A DNA stretch of 14,021 nucleotides, taken from the UHGV virus genome UHGV-0240988. One strand, given 5' to 3'. The position numbers and the translations under genes were made by a program. Within the stretch, counting starts at the first letter, position 1. Each line of letters begins with the position of its first letter. This document shows positions 676 through 6,802 of this stretch, one piece after another. The stretch comes from a virus. The notes under the pieces were generated by a model. It worked only from the letters and a program-made list of their open reading frames with translations. It did no database searches and was not told the origin of the DNA.

Positions 676-854
676 TTCTTCCCACTCCGCCACATCGCAT
701 TCAGATATTTGTTGTCATTAACAGAACCGAAACTCTTTCTCTTAAGCAATTCCTCTCTCGATGGCATTGGCTTTACGCGTTGGCGAATAATCATTTCTGC
801 CGGAAGAATGCCGGGATTGTATGCAAGTCCTCTCATGGTAAATTCCTCAGTCAT
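672..854 (-). CDS. Hypothetical small protein (start uncertain: ATG 854, ATG 869 or upstream)
   Basis: Track ORF 672..977 overlaps the 847..1143 ORF in another frame; internal ATG at 854 sits 3 nt upstream of that ORF's stop (ATGACTGA), suggesting coupling. No clear SD. Confidence 0.3.
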
Positions 855-1143
855 TACTGATAGCGCCATAGCGTGATCGATAATTACGCAGCCGCGGGTC
901 GATATATTCAGGGAAGTGGGTATATGTGGCTTTGCGGAATGGTCGGATTGATGTTTCGTTTGTTCGGTCCTTCTCATTTTTTAACGCGAGTTGTATATCG
1001 CGTCGGTACATCCGTTCTGCTTTTGTTTCTGGTGGCAGATCGATAAACGTGTCGAAAATGTTTTTGATATTTTCCAGCACCTCCGCCTTGGAGCTACCGG
1101 AGCAATTGCGCGGGTCATCCGCACCATACAGAGGCGCTGGCAT
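847..1143 (-). CDS. Hypothetical protein, 98 aa
   Basis: ORF with ATG at 1143 and an AAGG motif about 10 nt upstream; lies directly downstream of the SSB-like gene in the same operon. Confidence 0.45.
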
Positions 1144-1166
1144 AATGGGAGCCTTATTTTCAGTAA

Positions 1167-1754
1167 TCAGAAAGCAGGGTAATCGTTCTGGCTGTAACCA
1201 TAATCATCTGCATGATTCTGGCTTACGTTTTTAGAGCGATTGTCTTTATCTTTGAGATTGGCAACCATGTTGGCGATAGTTTCTGGTTGCTTGCCTTCTG
1301 CCTTTTCTTTAAGGGTTTGACCTGTTTGTGCAATAAACGGGATGCGTATTTCCATCTGGTAGTTGTCTGCGCCAGTCTTTTTGTTTGTGGTTAATACTTT
1401 CTGGAGCACTAACCCGATTTTCTTTCCATGAAATTCAGGTGCAACAAATTTACTGGCGGAAACCATATGCTGCGTTAATTGTCCAATCCCGGCACACCCC
1501 ATCATGGCGTGAACGACATTTGCGCCAAATTTGTTTTCCGTTCCGTCATTTTTCTGAACACAGACGCTAAGATATTGGATTTTACGTCCGTCGTCGGATT
1601 CTCCAGAAAACTCAATAAATTTGGCTCCTTTTTCTGATTGCTTTAGTTCTGCTTCAGTAATGGTAATGATATGGGCGCCAGTTTCGTTAATAAAACCACC
1701 TTGCCCTGCGGTCAGTGCTGCTTCTTCGTTATAAGTAAAAATCACGTTGCTCAT
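1167..1754 (-). CDS. SSB-like / DUF669-type single-strand DNA-binding partner of Sak4
   Basis: 195-aa ORF whose ATG (1754) overlaps the sak4-like stop (ATGA); acidic aromatic C-terminal tail ...DDYGYSQNDYPAF resembling the SSB C-terminal DDDIPF tail; position immediately downstream of a Sak4-type ATPase is typical for this family. Confidence 0.55.
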   Translation of the reverse strand: MSNVIFTYNEEAALTAGQGGFINETGAHIITITEAELKQSEKGAKFIEFSGESDDGRKIQYLSVCVQKNDGTENKFGANVVHAMMGCAGIGQLTQHMVSASKFVAPEFHGKKIGLVLQKVLTTNKKTGADNYQMEIRIPFIAQTGQTLKEKAEGKQPETIANMVANLKDKDNRSKNVSQNHADDYGYSQNDYPAF

Positions 1755-2431
1755 GCGGCGTTTTCCTTAATTTGATGAACATTATTGATGCCGTAGTAAT
1801 CACAAACAGTGGCATCGACGAAAGAGAGATCGTTATCAATCTCATTGGAATCAAACATTCCCATTGGGGATTTGACAGTGTCTGCACCGTTGTTTTTCGT
1901 GGTGAAAAAGAACTGGTCATCGCGGGTAAGAGTGCGAAGAACTATAGTAAACATGCCTTCGACAGTGATTTTCTCGTCCAGCATTTTGCCGATAGTTTTC
2001 ATTTTCACGCGCCCCATAGGGGTTTCTTCGGTATGTGCAAGAAAATAGACTCTCAGGTCATCAGGTGCATCCTGTGCAGCCTTAATCACCTCCCATGCGT
2101 GGCGGCCTATCTCAGTGAATTTATCAAACGATTTTTCTTCTGAGCGGCGCATAAACTCATTGCTCATCACATACTGGAAGTCATCAACAATAACGATTCT
2201 TTTTCCGTATTCGTGAGCACGCTTAATTGCAGCAACTATTACGTCCCATTTGTCAGTGGTAACTACGGTTCCTTTTTTTGCTCTGGCATCCCATGCCAGC
2301 CAGTCTTTTGATTTAAATGGAAGCGGCTTGCCTATTGGTTTTATAAGTATTGCTTCCTCTGGATTGATATTTCTCATGCTGGTTGATTTTCCGGTGCCAG
2401 ATTCACCGAGTATTAATGTCGCAGTTCCCAT
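1751..2431 (-). CDS. Sak4-like RecA-fold ssDNA annealing ATPase (AAA_24 family)
   Basis: 226 aa; Walker A LILGESGTGKST near the N-terminus, Walker B RIVIVDD; size and motif order typical of phage Sak4 recombinases; GAGG SD 7 nt upstream of ATG 2431; occupies the position of lambda bet/exo. Confidence 0.7.
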   Translation of the reverse strand: MGTATLILGESGTGKSTSMRNINPEEAILIKPIGKPLPFKSKDWLAWDARAKKGTVVTTDKWDVIVAAIKRAHEYGKRIVIVDDFQYVMSNEFMRRSEEKSFDKFTEIGRHAWEVIKAAQDAPDDLRVYFLAHTEETPMGRVKMKTIGKMLDEKITVEGMFTIVLRTLTRDDQFFFTTKNNGADTVKSPMGMFDSNEIDNDLSFVDATVCDYYGINNVHQIKENAA

Positions 2432-2439
2432 AATTTGCC

Positions 2440-2628
2440 TCAGAATGGTAATTCGGATGGGGAGGAAAGAAACTCACGCTCATTCATGCGCTCTCTTTGT
2501 GCCTGCCATAAGCAAAGTTGTTTCTTTGATTTATCTCCCGCTTTACGCCAGTAACGAGCCTCAGCAATGTGATATTCTCTTTTTAATCGACTTAACTCTG
2601 GAGTTTTCGCCAGTTCTACCGGAATCAT
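2440..2628 (-). CDS. Hypothetical small protein, 62 aa (in the position of lambda gam)
   Basis: ATG at 2628 overlaps the kil-like stop (ATGA) and is preceded by GGAGG (2638-2634) with 5-nt spacing; track ORF 2440..2640 begins 4 codons earlier. Confidence 0.45.
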   Translation of the reverse strand: MIPVELAKTPELSRLKREYHIAEARYWRKAGDKSKKQLCLWQAQRERMNEREFLSSPSELPF

Positions 2629-2738
2629 TTTGACCTCCATTTTCTGTAGGCTTCGACGGCCTCACGAAACATCTTTTCATCGCCAATAAAAGCGGCGATA
2701 GTGAATTTAGTCTGGATAGCCATAAGTGTTTTATCCAT
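2625..2738 (-). CDS. kil: Kil-like host division inhibitor (short, 37 aa)
   Basis: Peptide MDKTLMAIQTKFTIAAFIGDEKMFREAVEAYRKW... closely matches my recollection of the lambda Kil N-terminus (MDQTLMAIQTKFTIATFIGDEKMFREAVDAYKKW); lies immediately downstream of cIII as in lambda. Confidence 0.55.
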   Translation of the reverse strand: MDKTLMAIQTKFTIAAFIGDEKMFREAVEAYRKWRSK

Positions 2739-2871
2739 TCTTTGGGACTCCTGGCTGATTAAGTATGTCGATAAGGCGTTTCCATCCGTCACGTAATTTA
2801 CGGGTGATTCGTTCAAGTAAAGATTCGGAAGGGCAGCCAGCAACAGGCCACCCTGCAATGGCATATTGCAT
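2731..2871 (-). CDS. cIII: cIII (protease-inhibitor / CII-stabilising protein), 46 aa
   Basis: Peptide MQYAIAGWPVAGCPSESLLERITRKLRDGWKRLIDILNQPGVPKNG matches lambda cIII as recalled (lambda is 54 aa; this copy ends 8 residues earlier); GGAG SD 6 nt upstream of ATG 2871. Confidence 0.75.
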   Translation of the reverse strand: MQYAIAGWPVAGCPSESLLERITRKLRDGWKRLIDILNQPGVPKNG

Positions 2872-2892
2872 GGTGTGCTCCTTATTTATACA

Positions 2893-2920
2893 TAACGAAA
2901 AACGCCTCGAGTGAAGCGTT
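2893..2920 (-). terminator. Terminator-like hairpin upstream of cIII (AACGC-loop-GCGTT then UUUUCGUU on the minus-strand RNA)
   Basis: 5-bp inverted repeat 2901-2905 / 2916-2920 followed on the minus strand by a U-rich run. Confidence 0.35.
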
Positions 2921-2930
2921 ATTGGTATGC

Positions 2931-2958
2931 ATATAAAAAGGCCCTCACACTGGAGGGC
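2931..2958 (-). terminator. Rho-independent terminator-like hairpin (GCCCUC-loop-GAGGGC then CUUUUUAUAU) in the leftward operon
   Basis: 6-bp GC-rich inverted repeat 2941-2946 / 2953-2958 followed on the minus strand by a U-tract (complement of 2931-2940); sits between the 207-aa gene and cIII. Confidence 0.5.
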
Positions 2959-3092
2959 AAAGAAGATTTCCAATAATCAGAACAAGTCGGCTCCTGTTTG
3001 GTTACGAGCGACATTGCTCCGTGTATTCACTCGTTGGAATGAATACACAGTGCAGTGTTTATTCTGTTGTTTATGCCAAAAATAAAGGACGA

Positions 3093-3716
3093 TTATGCGA
3101 CCTCGGAAGGAAGTCCAATCATCTTATTCAAATCTTCTACCCGTAAAGCAGGAAGTGCTGTACTTGCTTTATCTGCTTCTTTTGGTAGCAACTCTTTGCT
3201 TTCAGGCCAAACTTCAATAAGTCGCTTAACTGTTGTGACTGAGTTCAAAGCAGCCCATACATTTGATTCGATATCCTTTTTCTTGGCTTCAAGTTTTTGT
3301 TGCAATGCGCAGATTTCATCAAACCTTTTTGTTATTTCGTGTTCTGCGCTAAACATGCATTTATCTTTGGTCGGAGTAGGGAGCAATATATCTTCGCCGT
3401 TGCCGTCTTTCCCATATGAATACCAGCCAACCCTTCTGCCAGATACAGTCAGATAAATTGAAGTTGAACGGGCATCGCATGAGTAAAATGAACATCCCAG
3501 CTTTTCAAGTTCTTCGCTTATAGCCATTAACTTGGATGATAACTGATCCACTTCCTCAGTTTTCTTTTTACCGCCAAACGCAACAACTCTGGCGTCAAGT
3601 GCAAGCTGGTTCTTTAACTTTGTTACTTCTTCAAGCTCAGTGAAAACCCCAGATTTAATTAAAGCGTTACGAGCGATTTTCTCTTTCATTCTCGTAGTTA
3701 AGCGGATTGATGACAT
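3093..3716 (-). CDS. Hypothetical protein, 207 aa (accessory gene between N and cIII, where lambda has ral/sieB/ea10)
   Basis: ATG at 3716 with GAGGAA SD about 8 nt upstream (track ORF extends to 3776); Lys/Glu-rich, no obvious transmembrane segment; no family recognised. Confidence 0.6.
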   Translation of the reverse strand: MSSIRLTTRMKEKIARNALIKSGVFTELEEVTKLKNQLALDARVVAFGGKKKTEEVDQLSSKLMAISEELEKLGCSFYSCDARSTSIYLTVSGRRVGWYSYGKDGNGEDILLPTPTKDKCMFSAEHEITKRFDEICALQQKLEAKKKDIESNVWAALNSVTTVKRLIEVWPESKELLPKEADKASTALPALRVEDLNKMIGLPSEVA

Positions 3717-3777
3717 ATTAATTCCTCTCAAATAAGTGGTTTGCTGCCTAATTTCATTTTCTGGCGACCAACACAAG

Positions 3778-4050
3778 TCATCTTGCTGTCAGTTGTTTGG
3801 ATTTCCGGTAGCCTGCCGCGTAAAGAGCTACATTTGGAAGACAAGTTGAGCCTTCATATTTTCTGGTCAACGTTGTCAGTGTTATTACTTCTGCTCTCAT
3901 TGCTGGTTTGCGCTTGCATTGCAAGACCACTCGAGAGGGGGTTGGTCTGTGTAGCTTGTCGGAGCTAATCGCCTCCTGACTTTGCAGGTTTGCGCGACGA
4001 GCTCTACGACGAGAAGCTGAGGTGCCTTTAAATTCTGTTTTTCTGGACAT
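3778..4050 (-). CDS. N: N-like transcription antitermination protein (P22 gp24-like)
   Basis: Arginine-rich motif SASRRRARRANLQ near the N-terminus and C-terminus ...VALYAAGYRKSKQLTAR resembling the P22 gene 24 C-terminus as recalled; GGAGG SD 6 nt upstream of ATG 4050; first gene downstream of pL/nutL. Confidence 0.7.
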   Translation of the reverse strand: MSRKTEFKGTSASRRRARRANLQSQEAISSDKLHRPTPSRVVLQCKRKPAMRAEVITLTTLTRKYEGSTCLPNVALYAAGYRKSKQLTAR

Positions 4051-4148
4051 AGATTCCTCCCGAATAAACTTTGGTGATGCAATCTCGAAGCTCCTCCTGA
4101 GACGGTTGCTTCGGCATTGCATCCCACAGCTTATGTGGTTGGGTGATC

Positions 4149-4194
4149 TGGCTTTTCAGCCACGTAGTCGAGAGTCGACGTTGTTTAAAGAGCC
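4149..4194 (-). promoter_or_regulatory. Candidate nutL (boxA-like GCTCTTTAA, 23-nt spacer, boxB-like hairpin UGGCU-GAAA-AGCCA)
   Basis: Read on the minus strand; same architecture and spacer length as the candidate nutR at 7108..7153, with a compensatory G-C to C-G swap in the boxB stem. Confidence 0.45.
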
Positions 4195-4229
4195 TGCCAG
4201 TCTGTTCCATTTAGCTTCCAGCGTCCTGC

Positions 4230-4302
4230 TGATGTGTTTAGTATCACCGCCGGAGGTATTTTCGTCAACACCGCTAGAGATAAAATATTACCGCAAATGG
4301 TT
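4230..4302 (-). promoter_or_regulatory. pL promoter with OL1-OL2-OL3 operators (lambda-like, diverged)
   Basis: Three 17-bp sites TATCACCGCCGGAGGTA (4242-4258), CAACACCGCTAGAGATA (4266-4282), TATTACCGCAAATGGTT (4286-4302) closely resemble lambda OL1-3 as recalled; the minus strand reads TTGACG (-35) ... GATACT (-10) ... CATCAGCAGGACGC as at lambda pL. Confidence 0.75.
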
Positions 4303-4450
4303 ATGTGCATGTTTTTACTATTGATTTATTTTTTTAAAGTTTTGCAGAGCTAGTCTGGATGTGTAGGAGCTGAATTGCGCAATGTGATAAGTGTGATTTA
4401 TATTTATTCAATAAATACAATTCGTTAGGTGTGTTTTTGACGGGCTGATG

Positions 4451-4479
4451 GTAAAAGAAAACCCGGCGCGGAGGCCGGG
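4451..4479 (-). terminator. Rho-independent terminator ending the cI-cassette transcript (tIMM-like)
   Basis: Inverted repeat CCCGGC (4462-4467) / GCCGGG (4474-4479) with 6-nt loop, followed on the minus strand by UUUUCUUUUAC; begins 16 nt after the stop of the 309-aa ORF. Confidence 0.6.
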
Positions 4480-4494
4480 CTGAAGGGGCTCATT

Positions 4495-5424
4495 CTAATC
4501 GATTGATTTAATATCCCATTGAGGTCGAGAAACCAGAGTGTATCTGGGCTTGCCCTTACCAACAGTTTTTTTCAGGAACGTGGCTGTTGCAACGCTTCCT
4601 AAGTGCTTGTTTATAATATCTGGGTCATCTACAGCTTTGTCAATGCTAGCGGTTCTGATATCAGTGTTACCTAAAACTATAAATTCACATTGGCGCTTGT
4701 TAGGAAGAGTTCCCAAAAATATAACGTTCTCAATAATTTTTTCCTGCTGAATGTTATCATTGCTGAGATGTTGATATACAGCTTCAAGCTGTTTTGGCTC
4801 TCTAAAAACGATGCTAAAACCTTGGCTTTTAAGTGTAAAAACTGTTTTATTTTCATGCAGATAATGAATGAATGCTCTGATTTTATCTAAGGCCCGAGAG
4901 TCTAAGTTTTCTATAGCATCAGACAATTCTTCATCATCATTATCCAAGCTTGCCTGAAATATTTTTCTGGCCTTATTAATAGCTTTTGCTACTGGGGTTT
5001 CTTCATCGAATTCAAGAGGAGCATCAGGTCTAAACTCTTCAAGTACGAATCCGAAAGAACCACGGGCTGACGCGGTAATCATGAGATGATTATTTTCTAT
5101 GTTTGGTATCTTGCCTGATGCAGGAAGTGGGCCATTGAAAGAGGTTGCCAAGTAAGCTATTGCATCATTAAAACAAGATATAGCTTTTGTTCCAAATACT
5201 GCTGAAATGCCATGCGTGCCAACTACTGTTGGGCCTCTAAAAGTTAACACAGCATGCGTAGGTTCATGTTCTCGAACGTCAGCTTGTGAAATTAATCGCT
5301 CAACTTTCTCCAGACGGTCTTCTAAGCTTTTTCGGCTAATAGAATGACTTGTTGGCATATTTTTTAATAGATTACTTATTTGCTCGCGCTCACTGAGAGC
5401 GAAAACATAATCATTACGATTCAT
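4495..5424 (-). CDS. Hypothetical protein, 309 aa; distal gene of the two-gene cassette in the rexA-rexB position (candidate exclusion/defence component)
   Basis: ATG 5424 overlaps the upstream gene's stop (ATGA) and has a strong SD GAGGGGG about 8 nt upstream; AT-rich relative to flanks; no Walker motifs or long hydrophobic segments seen; no family recognised. Confidence 0.7.
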   Translation of the reverse strand: MNRNDYVFALSEREQISNLLKNMPTSHSISRKSLEDRLEKVERLISQADVREHEPTHAVLTFRGPTVVGTHGISAVFGTKAISCFNDAIAYLATSFNGPLPASGKIPNIENNHLMITASARGSFGFVLEEFRPDAPLEFDEETPVAKAINKARKIFQASLDNDDEELSDAIENLDSRALDKIRAFIHYLHENKTVFTLKSQGFSIVFREPKQLEAVYQHLSNDNIQQEKIIENVIFLGTLPNKRQCEFIVLGNTDIRTASIDKAVDDPDIINKHLGSVATATFLKKTVGKGKPRYTLVSRPQWDIKSID

Positions 5425-5999
5425 TGTTTGACCCCCTCAGTAGTAGCCGAATTAAGTATAGTCATTGCCACAACATCAAGTTGTGGGTTTAACGGGATTT
5501 GGATAAATCCCTTCCACGACAGATCGCGTCTATGTGCCCACATACTGTACCAATATACAGTCATTTCAACAAGCTCATGACTTGGTAGATTAAGTTCTTG
5601 GAAGTAGGAATCTACGAAAAACTCCTTCTTAACAAAATCATGATCAAATAGCTCTGGCTTTCTACCGATTACGATTGCATCATTATCGCCATTACTGAAT
5701 TGAAAAAAGGTCACAACATCGACATCATTCGGTGGCCTTTTTTCAATAAGTTCAATATGTTCTGTGAAGCTTCCATCTACCCACTGAAAACCTTCAACTA
5801 GCCCTGCTTGAGTGAGTGAAACACGAAAGTTAAGAAAACCCTTAAGGATTTTAATCCTTGCAGGGCTAAGCGAAAAAGTACTAACAAAGCGTACTATATC
5901 CATTTTGTATGGGGAACGAGTATGGCTTGTAGGATCAGCCTCGTCTATTGGGGGGATTAACCCCATCTCATTCCATAGAGAGACAGTTGGTATACTCAA
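5421..5999 (-). CDS. Hypothetical protein, 192 aa (or about 181 aa from ATG 5966); proximal gene of the rex-slot cassette; possible minimal nucleotidyltransferase-like motif
   Basis: Track start is TTG at 5999 (AAGG 9 nt upstream); in-frame ATG at 5966. Contains ...WVDGSF-x14-DVDVV..., which loosely fits the G[SG]...[DE]h[DE]h signature of Pol-beta-superfamily nucleotidyltransferases (inference only). Confidence 0.6.
   Translation of the reverse strand: MSIPTVSLWNEMGLIPPIDEADPTSHTRSPYKMDIVRFVSTFSLSPARIKILKGFLNFRVSLTQAGLVEGFQWVDGSFTEHIELIEKRPPNDVDVVTFFQFSNGDNDAIVIGRKPELFDHDFVKKEFFVDSYFQELNLPSHELVEMTVYWYSMWAHRRDLSWKGFIQIPLNPQLDVVAMTILNSATTEGVKQ

Positions 6000-6085: not shown

Positions 6086-6802
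<717 letters not shown>

Follow-up and report, generated by a model that had tools for sequence, protein, structure and literature searches.

We analysed a window of 14,021 nucleotides from the virus genome UHGV-0240988 and found that the gene at positions 3093–3716 of its minus strand, which an original prediction made from the sequence alone could not place, codes for a protein of the Nmad5 family. There is little room for doubt that it is a stand-alone, full-length member of this family, carried as a mosaic cassette directly behind the antiterminator gene N in the pL operon of an E. coli prophage with lambda-type immunity. The gene (nmad5) is an ordinary and already annotated member of a known family. 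As to what the protein does, our tentative preference is for an adaptor without enzymatic activity that serves the phage's early DNA metabolism, which is weighed below against a role in counter-defence, in nucleotide modification, in regulation and in superinfection exclusion.

Family membership and integrity of nmad5

The protein matches the Pfam profile PF18757 (“nucleotide modification associated domain 5”) over its full length, with an E-value of 4.2e-71 and a score of 239.7 bits against a cut-off of 27: residues 4–203 align to profile positions 1–206 of 206, and each half of the protein also matches separately. A match to PHROG 1965 (phrog_1965, annotated “unknown function”) was obtained at 1e-81, and in RefSeq the identical protein is already named “Nmad5 family putative nucleotide modification protein” (WP_000095087.1, E. 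coli W224N); a prophage of this strain matches the window at 100% identity throughout its length. All sequence-based comparisons with PF18757 gave the same answer, including the C-terminal motif, the stand-alone length of about 200 residues and the hidden Markov model score, and relative to the family the window protein is of the same length class, exhibits the same invariant C-terminal motif and a single domain, and shows no structural difference. The feature that we did not find is a contextual one: the family was named in the setting of modification genes, whereas the window gene follows N in a lambdoid pL operon, its neighbours being N and cIII/kil, with no base-modification genes beside it. 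As context rather than sequence, this leaves membership unaffected, although it does weaken the transfer of the function that the name implies.

The coding sequence runs from an ATG at 3716 to a stop codon ending at 3093. A longer form, beginning with TTG at 3776 and coding for 227 residues, is present in the program-made list of open reading frames (ORFs); since the start MSS/MTS-IRLT is common to all 22 aligned homologues and the form annotated by the Prokaryotic Genome Annotation Pipeline (PGAP) comprises 624 nt, the ATG at 3716 was taken as the start.

3093–3716, minus strand: nmad5 coding sequence, 207 amino acids, stop included; supported by the ORF, PF18757, phrog_1965, PGAP (WP_000095087.1) and the dN/dS ratio
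3724–3729, minus strand: Shine-Dalgarno-like GAGAGG (GAGG at 3727–3724), read from the sequence, 7 nt before the nmad5 ATG

The plain features given in the original prediction agree with these results: the 207-residue ORF does lie between N (3778–4050) and cIII (2731–2871), the good Shine-Dalgarno sequence is present as GAGG 7 nt before the ATG, and the protein is hydrophilic and rich in lysine and glutamate (23 K, 21 E; grand average of hydropathy −0.34). With 33 K+R against 31 D+E its isoelectric point (pI) is 8.2, and no hydrophobic or membrane segment was found (maximum Kyte-Doolittle mean over 19 residues of 0.61). The remote homology and structure search that had been proposed for the unplaced protein succeeded in its first part, with the family being found through PF18757 and phrog_1965, and returned nothing similar among solved structures in its second.

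In a sample of 80 closely related IMG/VR loci (81 with the window), the nmad5 ORF was intact in 79, the remaining one exhibiting a stop at codon 3, and the mean ratio of non-synonymous to synonymous substitution (dN/dS) over 1991 allele pairs was 0.27–0.30. The Pfam E-value of 4e-71, the intact ORF in 79/80 loci and this dN/dS exclude a chance ORF: nmad5 is a real gene under purifying selection. By the same intact loci and a dN/dS of about 0.28, pseudogene status of the window copy was rejected.

The gene is dispensable. In the Shiga toxin (Stx) 2a-converting phage LC616032.1 an IS3-family element of 1.3 kb (1474–2782; OrfA HTH_Tnp_1, OrfB rve) splits nmad5 at the equivalent of window positions 3610–3613, close to codon 35, having duplicated 4 bp of the target, and the same split match occurs in the other records of Stx2a-converting phages (48 in the phage collection). 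A constructed nmad5 deletion in Dhillonvirus still infects (PMC11846954). The Stx2a-converting phages also carry an additional DUF2528 gene between cIII and nmad5.

Proteins 93–99% identical to that of the window are present in phage Kapi1 (Lederbergvirus; 99%), HK542 and Stx1a-converting phages, and nmad5 is found in 211 of 5426 complete E. coli genomes (about 4%), a patchy distribution. A HMMER scan of 1.8 billion representatives returned 2281 clusters at 50% identity (E ≤ 0.001); among the best 150 of these nearly all proteins are stand-alone and 190–230 residues long, the exceptions being a few shorter fragments and one protein of 296 residues. Only 6 of 72,556 plasmids carry a member, all of them about 24–48 kb, non-mobilizable and phage-like: outside phages and prophages the family is virtually absent, and it is common in strictly virulent phages. 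A DNA scan of genome contigs gave 12 nmad5 loci, all from Enterobacterales, with a pattern too strict to inform on host range, and further scans of viral contigs returned largely one set of 258 contigs. NCBIfam gave no match to the protein, and neither did PADLOC, a library of defence and not of anti-defence proteins.

Transcription of nmad5 and the slot behind N

The elements that flank nmad5 are as follows, in the order in which transcription from pL would meet them.

4240–4268, minus strand: pL-like sigma-70 promoter, TTGACG-17 nt-GATACT, of putative function
4167–4193, minus strand: nutL-like region with boxA-like GCTCTTTAA (4193–4185) and small hairpin GTCGACTCTCGAC (4179–4167); from the sequence, the hairpin having been found by a scan on the other strand
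3778–4050, minus strand: N antiterminator gene, 90 amino acids from the ATG at 4050; PF25694 N_peptide, 1e-31
3717–3777, minus strand: N–nmad5 spacer, 61 nt
3021–3048, minus strand: hairpin GTGTATTCA-n10-TGAATACAC, its stem a perfect inverted repeat of 9 bp and its loop 10 nt long; no T run
2931–2958, minus strand: first terminator-like hairpin past nmad5 (stem 2958–2941 plus T run), found by scan
2891–2920, minus strand: second terminator-like hairpin, just before cIII (stem 2920–2901 plus T run), found by scan
2731–2871, minus strand: cIII, the first gene past the terminators; from the PGAP annotation of the identical record and the sequence

The pL-like site is the only promoter-like site within 2600–4500, with none of its own found for nmad5 in this interval, and its position matches pL/OL of the lambda record; the candidate at 4167–4193 may be nutL, judging by its position and by the lambda consensus. 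Between the N stop (3778) and the nmad5 ATG (3716) there is neither a terminator-like site nor a stable RNA structure (z = +0.89 when compared with shuffled sequences). Because both terminator-like hairpins lie downstream of nmad5 and none lies between N and nmad5, the gene should be read through from pL without N: from this arrangement we expect nmad5 to be co-transcribed with N as an immediate-early gene for which antitermination is not needed. The straightforward reading of the two terminators is that they would make cIII and the later genes N-dependent, and not nmad5. Both hairpins, each with its T run, are where the original prediction had placed them; its conclusion that expression of nmad5 is N-dependent does not follow, since there is no terminator before the gene and both come after it. 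The further hairpin at 3021–3048, 44 nt past the nmad5 stop, is kept at an equal offset in 57 of 79 related loci; it belongs to the cassette's 3' end and travels with nmad5, and it could act as an RNA processing or stability element or mark a recombination boundary.

Across the 80 loci and the window, nmad5 follows at least six unrelated N-type proteins (which we take to include lambda-type, 21-like, P22 gp24-like and 933W-like), 11–136 bp apart in the main clusters and with a spacer of only 11 nt in 35 of the related loci. The downstream flank is variable: only 18 of the 81 loci have a lambda-type cIII at a distance of 1.5 kb or less from the gene. Together with the dispensability of the gene, the six N types and the variable downstream flank bear out the proposal of a variable accessory slot after N. 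The analogy drawn to ral, sieB and ea10, which occupy the N–cIII interval of the lambda record, holds for genomic position and fails for homology: comparison of lambda Ral, SieB and Ea10 with the Nmad5 profile by hhalign gave probabilities of 0.07–0.22% (Ral 0.07%, SieB 0.22%). These three are, like nmad5, non-essential accessory genes of the pL operon in the same slot, but their products are 66, 184 and 122 residues long as against 207, and sieB lies on the opposite strand in the lambda record whereas nmad5 is oriented with pL. In lambda, tL1 is located just after N and hence ral, sieB and ea10 lie past a terminator, whilst nmad5 precedes the first terminator-like sites.

Predicted fold, conserved residues and gene contexts

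Two AlphaFold2 runs, based on alignments of 22 and 65 sequences, agree on the fold (mean predicted local distance difference test (pLDDT) scores of 84.7 and 87.9, respectively): three long helices (residues 8–72) are followed by a beta-hairpin (86–100), a 32-residue helix (127–158) and short helices (163–182). No solved structure was found to be similar to the model and no enzyme fold of nucleotide modification was recognised in it, nor was a helix-turn-helix (HTH) or other known nucleic-acid-binding domain detected. Sequence-profile searches of the PDB with the whole protein and with the C-terminal motif gave nothing significant; the best match of the motif (E = 0.46, not significant) was a segment of oligoribonuclease/REXO2 before the last exonuclease motif of that enzyme, and this likeness of residues 159–192 (window about 3141–3242) is probably due to chance; DEDDh exonuclease genes do adjoin nmad5 in several phages, L089, L092 and a number of the IMG/VR contexts among them.

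Across 65 diverse members L166, W170, P171, E175, L176, P178, L196, N197 and G201 are invariant, and I14, A18, K21, G23, R43, G48, G93, V153, E172, P189, L202 and P203 are nearly so; the conserved C-terminal motif reads T-x-K-[KR]-L-L-x-x-W-P-E-x-x-E-L-L-P ... L-P-A-x-x-V-x-D-L-N-x-L-I-G-L-P. L, W, P, G, N and E make up most of the conserved positions (65–66 members), joined by R43 and K21, and no catalytic-type cluster of residues is present amongst them. Judged by fold and conservation, Nmad5 is probably non-enzymatic. Residues 183–207, the most conserved stretch of the protein, have a pLDDT below 50 in both models: this combination is typical of a docking peptide, and the tail may fold only on its partner.

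The only experimental data on an Nmad5 homologue that we found in the literature concern Dhillonvirus. In mutants that escape the defence system Tmn, a KAP NTPase, Nmad5 is altered by K296E (SM_S22) or K216E (SM_A8), and reversion of the change restores sensitivity, while deletion of nmad5 gives no escape (PMC11846954). The wild-type protein provides no protection against Tmn, which a separate anti-Tmn gene does, and the homologue could not be cloned, apparently because of its toxicity (PMC11846954). By our alignment, K296 of SM_S22 corresponds to R165 of the window protein, located in the T-x-K-[KR]-L motif next to the invariant L166. The correspondence marks the surface around R165 as functional; what this surface does is not revealed by Tmn escape. 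The Dhillonvirus proteins (SM_S22 CDS6, SM_A8 CDS7, SECphi18 gp24) are homologous to window residues 103–203 at 31–33% identity and share with the window protein the WPE...LN..GxP motif and dispensability. They differ from it in their greater length (254 residues, 334 in the annotation), in an N-terminal half that has diverged, and in their location on the opposite strand amongst head genes; the reported toxicity and link to Tmn concern the Dhillonvirus protein. About 200 nt of the 334-residue frame annotated in SM_S22 (PP627283.1, 5005–6009) coincide with the scaffolding gene of the other strand, and the start that gives 254 residues (SECphi18; implied for SM_A8) is more plausible. Other leads from SECphi18 were followed and rejected: the KpAvs2 trigger Ksap1 is a different protein of 74 residues, the RAZR trigger is the portal, and escape from Retron-Eco8 and Borvo maps to SSB and the polymerase, so that none of them involves Nmad5. 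The unspecified “NMAD” domain in bacterial systems of the DefensePredictor paper could not be tied to Nmad5.

Gene contexts were sampled from annotated phages, ten contig look-ups and 30 dereplicated IMG/VR contexts, in which eight neighbours each (four upstream, four downstream; 236 proteins) were compared with Pfam. The order DUF2800 exonuclease, Enc34-type protein that binds single-stranded DNA (SSB), Nmad5, DNA polymerase A (PolA) recurs in unrelated phages of the virulent or PolA-encoding kind, namely in contigs L100, L102 and L270 and in Acinetobacter phage Scuro, and more loosely in L096; in L089, L092 and Shigella phage B2 the gene immediately downstream of nmad5 codes for a DEDDh or PD-(D/E)XK nuclease. 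In temperate phages nmad5 is a few genes from a CI-type repressor, heading the early-left operon before the recombination genes. Amongst the four upstream genes of the 30 IMG/VR contexts CI-type repressors occur (Peptidase_S24 in 9), and recombination functions abound amongst the four downstream genes: AAA_24/Sak4 (4), DUF2800 (3), PolA (3), PDDEXK (3), Enc34 SSB (2), Rv2179c-like (2) and ERF, RecT and YqaJ (one each). Recombination and replication form the commonest functional class near nmad5. Modification-related families (Thy1, dUTPase, MT-A70, dGTP_diPhyd_N) occurred once each among the 236 neighbours; homologues are occasionally found in an M6/SN1-type thymidine hypermodification cluster, beside ThyX in an N4-like phage, beside a PurZ/MazZ/DatZ-type set, and two genes away from DNA methyltransferases in two temperate early-left operons. 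In the nmad5-bearing contig L092/L093 (about 8600–12800) such a 2-aminoadenine-type gene set (Adenylsucc_synt, PurZ-like; dGTP_diPhyd_N; dATP-dGTP_PPHyd; an HD protein) adjoins genes for DNA polymerase A and an RNase_T-like exonuclease.

Nmad5 proteins of N4-like (Ithacavirus B2 gp19), Acinetobacter (Scuro gp36) and Vibrio phages match the window protein over its full length at 25–34% identity, and Yuavirus SN1 gp19 and the matching M6 protein match residues 121–207 only, at about 32% identity. In virulent phages the protein is stand-alone and expressed with early or middle genes of DNA metabolism, beside PolA, SSB, nucleases, ThyX and hypermodification enzymes. Apart from a phage SSB-like protein and a Sak4-like ATPase, which lie further along the operon, the lambdoid phage lacks all of these neighbours. 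The genes concerned form a recombination module (847–2431, minus strand) of the Sak4 rather than the Red type:

847–1143, minus strand: P22-type Abc2
1167–1754, minus strand: 195-residue protein without a Pfam match; its last residues, DDYGYSQNDYPAF, resemble the acidic tip of SSB
1751–2431, minus strand: Sak4-like AAA_24 ATPase

Among loci of the E. coli type, 58 extend for 5 kb or more downstream of nmad5; in these the annealing protein varies (Erf, Rad52-like, RecT, Sak4-like), P22-type Abc2 is present in 43 and lambda Gam/Bet/Exo in only 4, against a background of 4053 places for gam and 1364 for abc2 in complete E. coli genomes. This enrichment of Abc2 is nominally strong (binomial p about 1e-14), with the loci being related and the background taken from another collection, and the association of nmad5 with Abc2 is a lead only.

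Elsewhere in the window, the minus strand between pL and cI (6086–6799) carries a gene for a 309-residue protein without a Pfam match (4495–5424), overlapped by one for a DUF6932 protein (5421–5999, E 2e-26) and followed by a terminator-like hairpin (4481–4460). This pair occupies the rexA/rexB position of lambda and could be a prophage-expressed defence or exclusion pair; the CI and Cro proteins of the window we take to be nearly lambda-like. On the plus strand, an HNH endonuclease gene (10548–11159) lies between the Toprim/DnaB-like primase-helicase gene (8585–10465) and ninB, possibly a homing-endonuclease insertion. Still in the early-left operon, 3 kb past the left end of the window, PGAP annotates a truncated “dTDP-6-deoxy-L-hexose 3-O-methyltransferase” pseudogene (L001, 1518–2030), which has no Pfam match at E ≤ 0.001.

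Possible roles of Nmad5

The adaptor that we tentatively favour would be a small helical protein produced as soon as lytic development begins, from the unterminated N transcript, which would assist in end processing, in the handling of single-stranded DNA and in recombination-dependent replication. Through its invariant flexible C-terminal peptide and a few conserved basic residues it would bind a partner conserved throughout the Proteobacteria, or DNA itself, and its function would be helpful and not essential. What we infer in this scheme is that the protein is non-enzymatic, that its tail serves in binding and that it is linked to recombination and replication; family membership, the intact gene under purifying selection, transcript layout, fold class, gene contexts and dispensability are shown by the results above. 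In its favour are the transcript layout, the fold and pattern of conservation, the replication and recombination contexts, the confinement of the family to phages, the surface around R165, and the M6 base chemistry, which was assigned without Nmad5. A common theme of the contexts is the combination of a nuclease, an SSB or annealing protein, and Nmad5; in lambdoid phages, the nuclease would be the host RecBCD, which is redirected by Abc2 as known from P22. Several points weigh against such an adaptor. No family member is known to bind a partner or DNA, and no constant partner gene emerges, the genes directly downstream of nmad5 in 11 contexts being without sequence similarity to each other. 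Lambdoid phages carry nmad5 without a PolA or DUF2800 gene, and therefore any role of the protein must be independent of both; the association with Abc2 may reflect shared ancestry and linkage and not function. In Dhillonvirus (on the opposite strand) and in L094 nmad5 lies amongst head genes in the manner of a moron; the IS-disrupted copies of Stx2a phages and the Dhillonvirus deletion mutant that still plates show that phages can do without it. Finally, immediate-early expression and patchiness (211/5426) fit a counter-defence gene equally well.

Counter-defence is the most serious competitor, possible though on balance unlikely: Nmad5 would be an immediate-early inhibitor or decoy of restriction (by Ral-like alleviation), of a type IV system or of an abortive-infection sensor such as Tmn, binding its target via the C-terminal peptide. 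In favour of such a protein, nmad5 comes first behind N on a pL transcript that is unterminated up to there, and it is a mosaic, patchy and dispensable cassette in the slot of ral and sieB. In Dhillonvirus, charge reversal in the conserved motif escapes Tmn and deletion does not, which suggests an interaction with the Tmn pathway, and the homologue is toxic to clone; genes with anti-nuclease function are sometimes found nearby (Abc2, and once a T7 gp5.9-like gene), and the DNA-modification genes that adjoin nmad5 in several phages are themselves anti-restriction devices. However, protection against Tmn in Dhillonvirus comes from a separate gene and not from wild-type Nmad5, and with a pI of 8.2 Nmad5 is not acidic and hence not a DNA mimic of the Ocr/ArdA type, with no structural match either. 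It shows no homology to Ral (hhalign 0.07%) and no PADLOC match, the latter with the restriction to defence proteins given above. The fixed place between SSB and polymerase in distant virulent phages is unusual for an anti-defence gene, and the family's virtual absence from plasmids (6/72,556) speaks against counter-defence; for the same reason an anti-restriction gene of the leading region of conjugative plasmids was rejected.

The name of the family suggests instead a nucleotide-modification factor, either an enzyme or a targeting or scaffolding subunit, that installs or tolerates non-canonical bases or methylation. As far as PMC11846954 conveys it, the Pfam name rests on association with modification genes, for which Iyer et al. 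2013 is cited there. The homologues in the M6/SN1 cluster, beside ThyX, beside the PurZ/MazZ/DatZ-type set and two genes from methyltransferases agree with such a role, which we nonetheless consider improbable. No modification gene adjoins nmad5 in the window or the related lambdoid loci, where N, cIII, kil, recombinases and Abc2 are found instead; the related Pfam families occur only once each in the sampled neighbourhoods, and the protein exhibits neither an enzyme-like fold nor a conserved set of catalytic residues. In M6 the 5-NedU steps were assigned to gp51–gp54; the lysate mix additionally contained gp55, and none of the proteins employed was a homologue of Nmad5 (PMC8989533), which argues against a needed catalytic role of Nmad5 in base chemistry; in the literature, nucleotide-modification activity is reported for no member. 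Of similarly low probability is a regulatory role alongside N and cIII, in transcription, antitermination or the lysis-lysogeny decision. Constant adjacency to N genes of at least six types, often with a spacer of only 11 nt, would be in keeping with it, and the long helical hairpins and conserved basic residues could bind nucleic acid, but most members belong to phages without N or cIII, where they lie inside replication modules, and neither an HTH nor any other known nucleic-acid-binding domain was detected. Exclusion of superinfecting phages in the manner of SieB, or a different defence function expressed from the prophage, is largely refuted. All that speaks for it is the presence of exclusion genes in this slot of lambda and P22. 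SieB is membrane-associated; Nmad5 has no membrane segment, hhalign against lambda SieB gives 0.2%, PADLOC gives no match, and the family is common in strictly virulent phages. Being oriented with pL and having no separate promoter-like site, nmad5 should be under CI repression in a lysogen, and it is this repression of pL, together with the missing membrane segment and promoter-like site, that argues against a SieB-like role.

The adaptor reading could be extended to the whole family, although we regard this wider proposal as rather doubtful: the Nmad5 proteins (about 2300 clusters, in many phage types of Proteobacteria) would form a large class of phage adaptors whose C-terminal peptide docks on a conserved protein of DNA metabolism, for example SSB, RecBCD or the replisome, coupling end resection and the handling of single-stranded DNA to phage replication, and Tmn-like sensors would monitor this same interaction. 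The gene contexts suggest that the family name “nucleotide modification” over-states what they support. This very widespread family, whose expression in lambdoid phages would coincide with the outset of development, occurs in Stx-converting phages as well as in phages being engineered for therapy, and escape from Tmn is its only experimental link. The lambdoid nmad5 would be a convenient model for the family, being small, dispensable and located in a tractable phage background, and it affords clear predictions for mutants, namely R165E and a truncation of residues 183–207.

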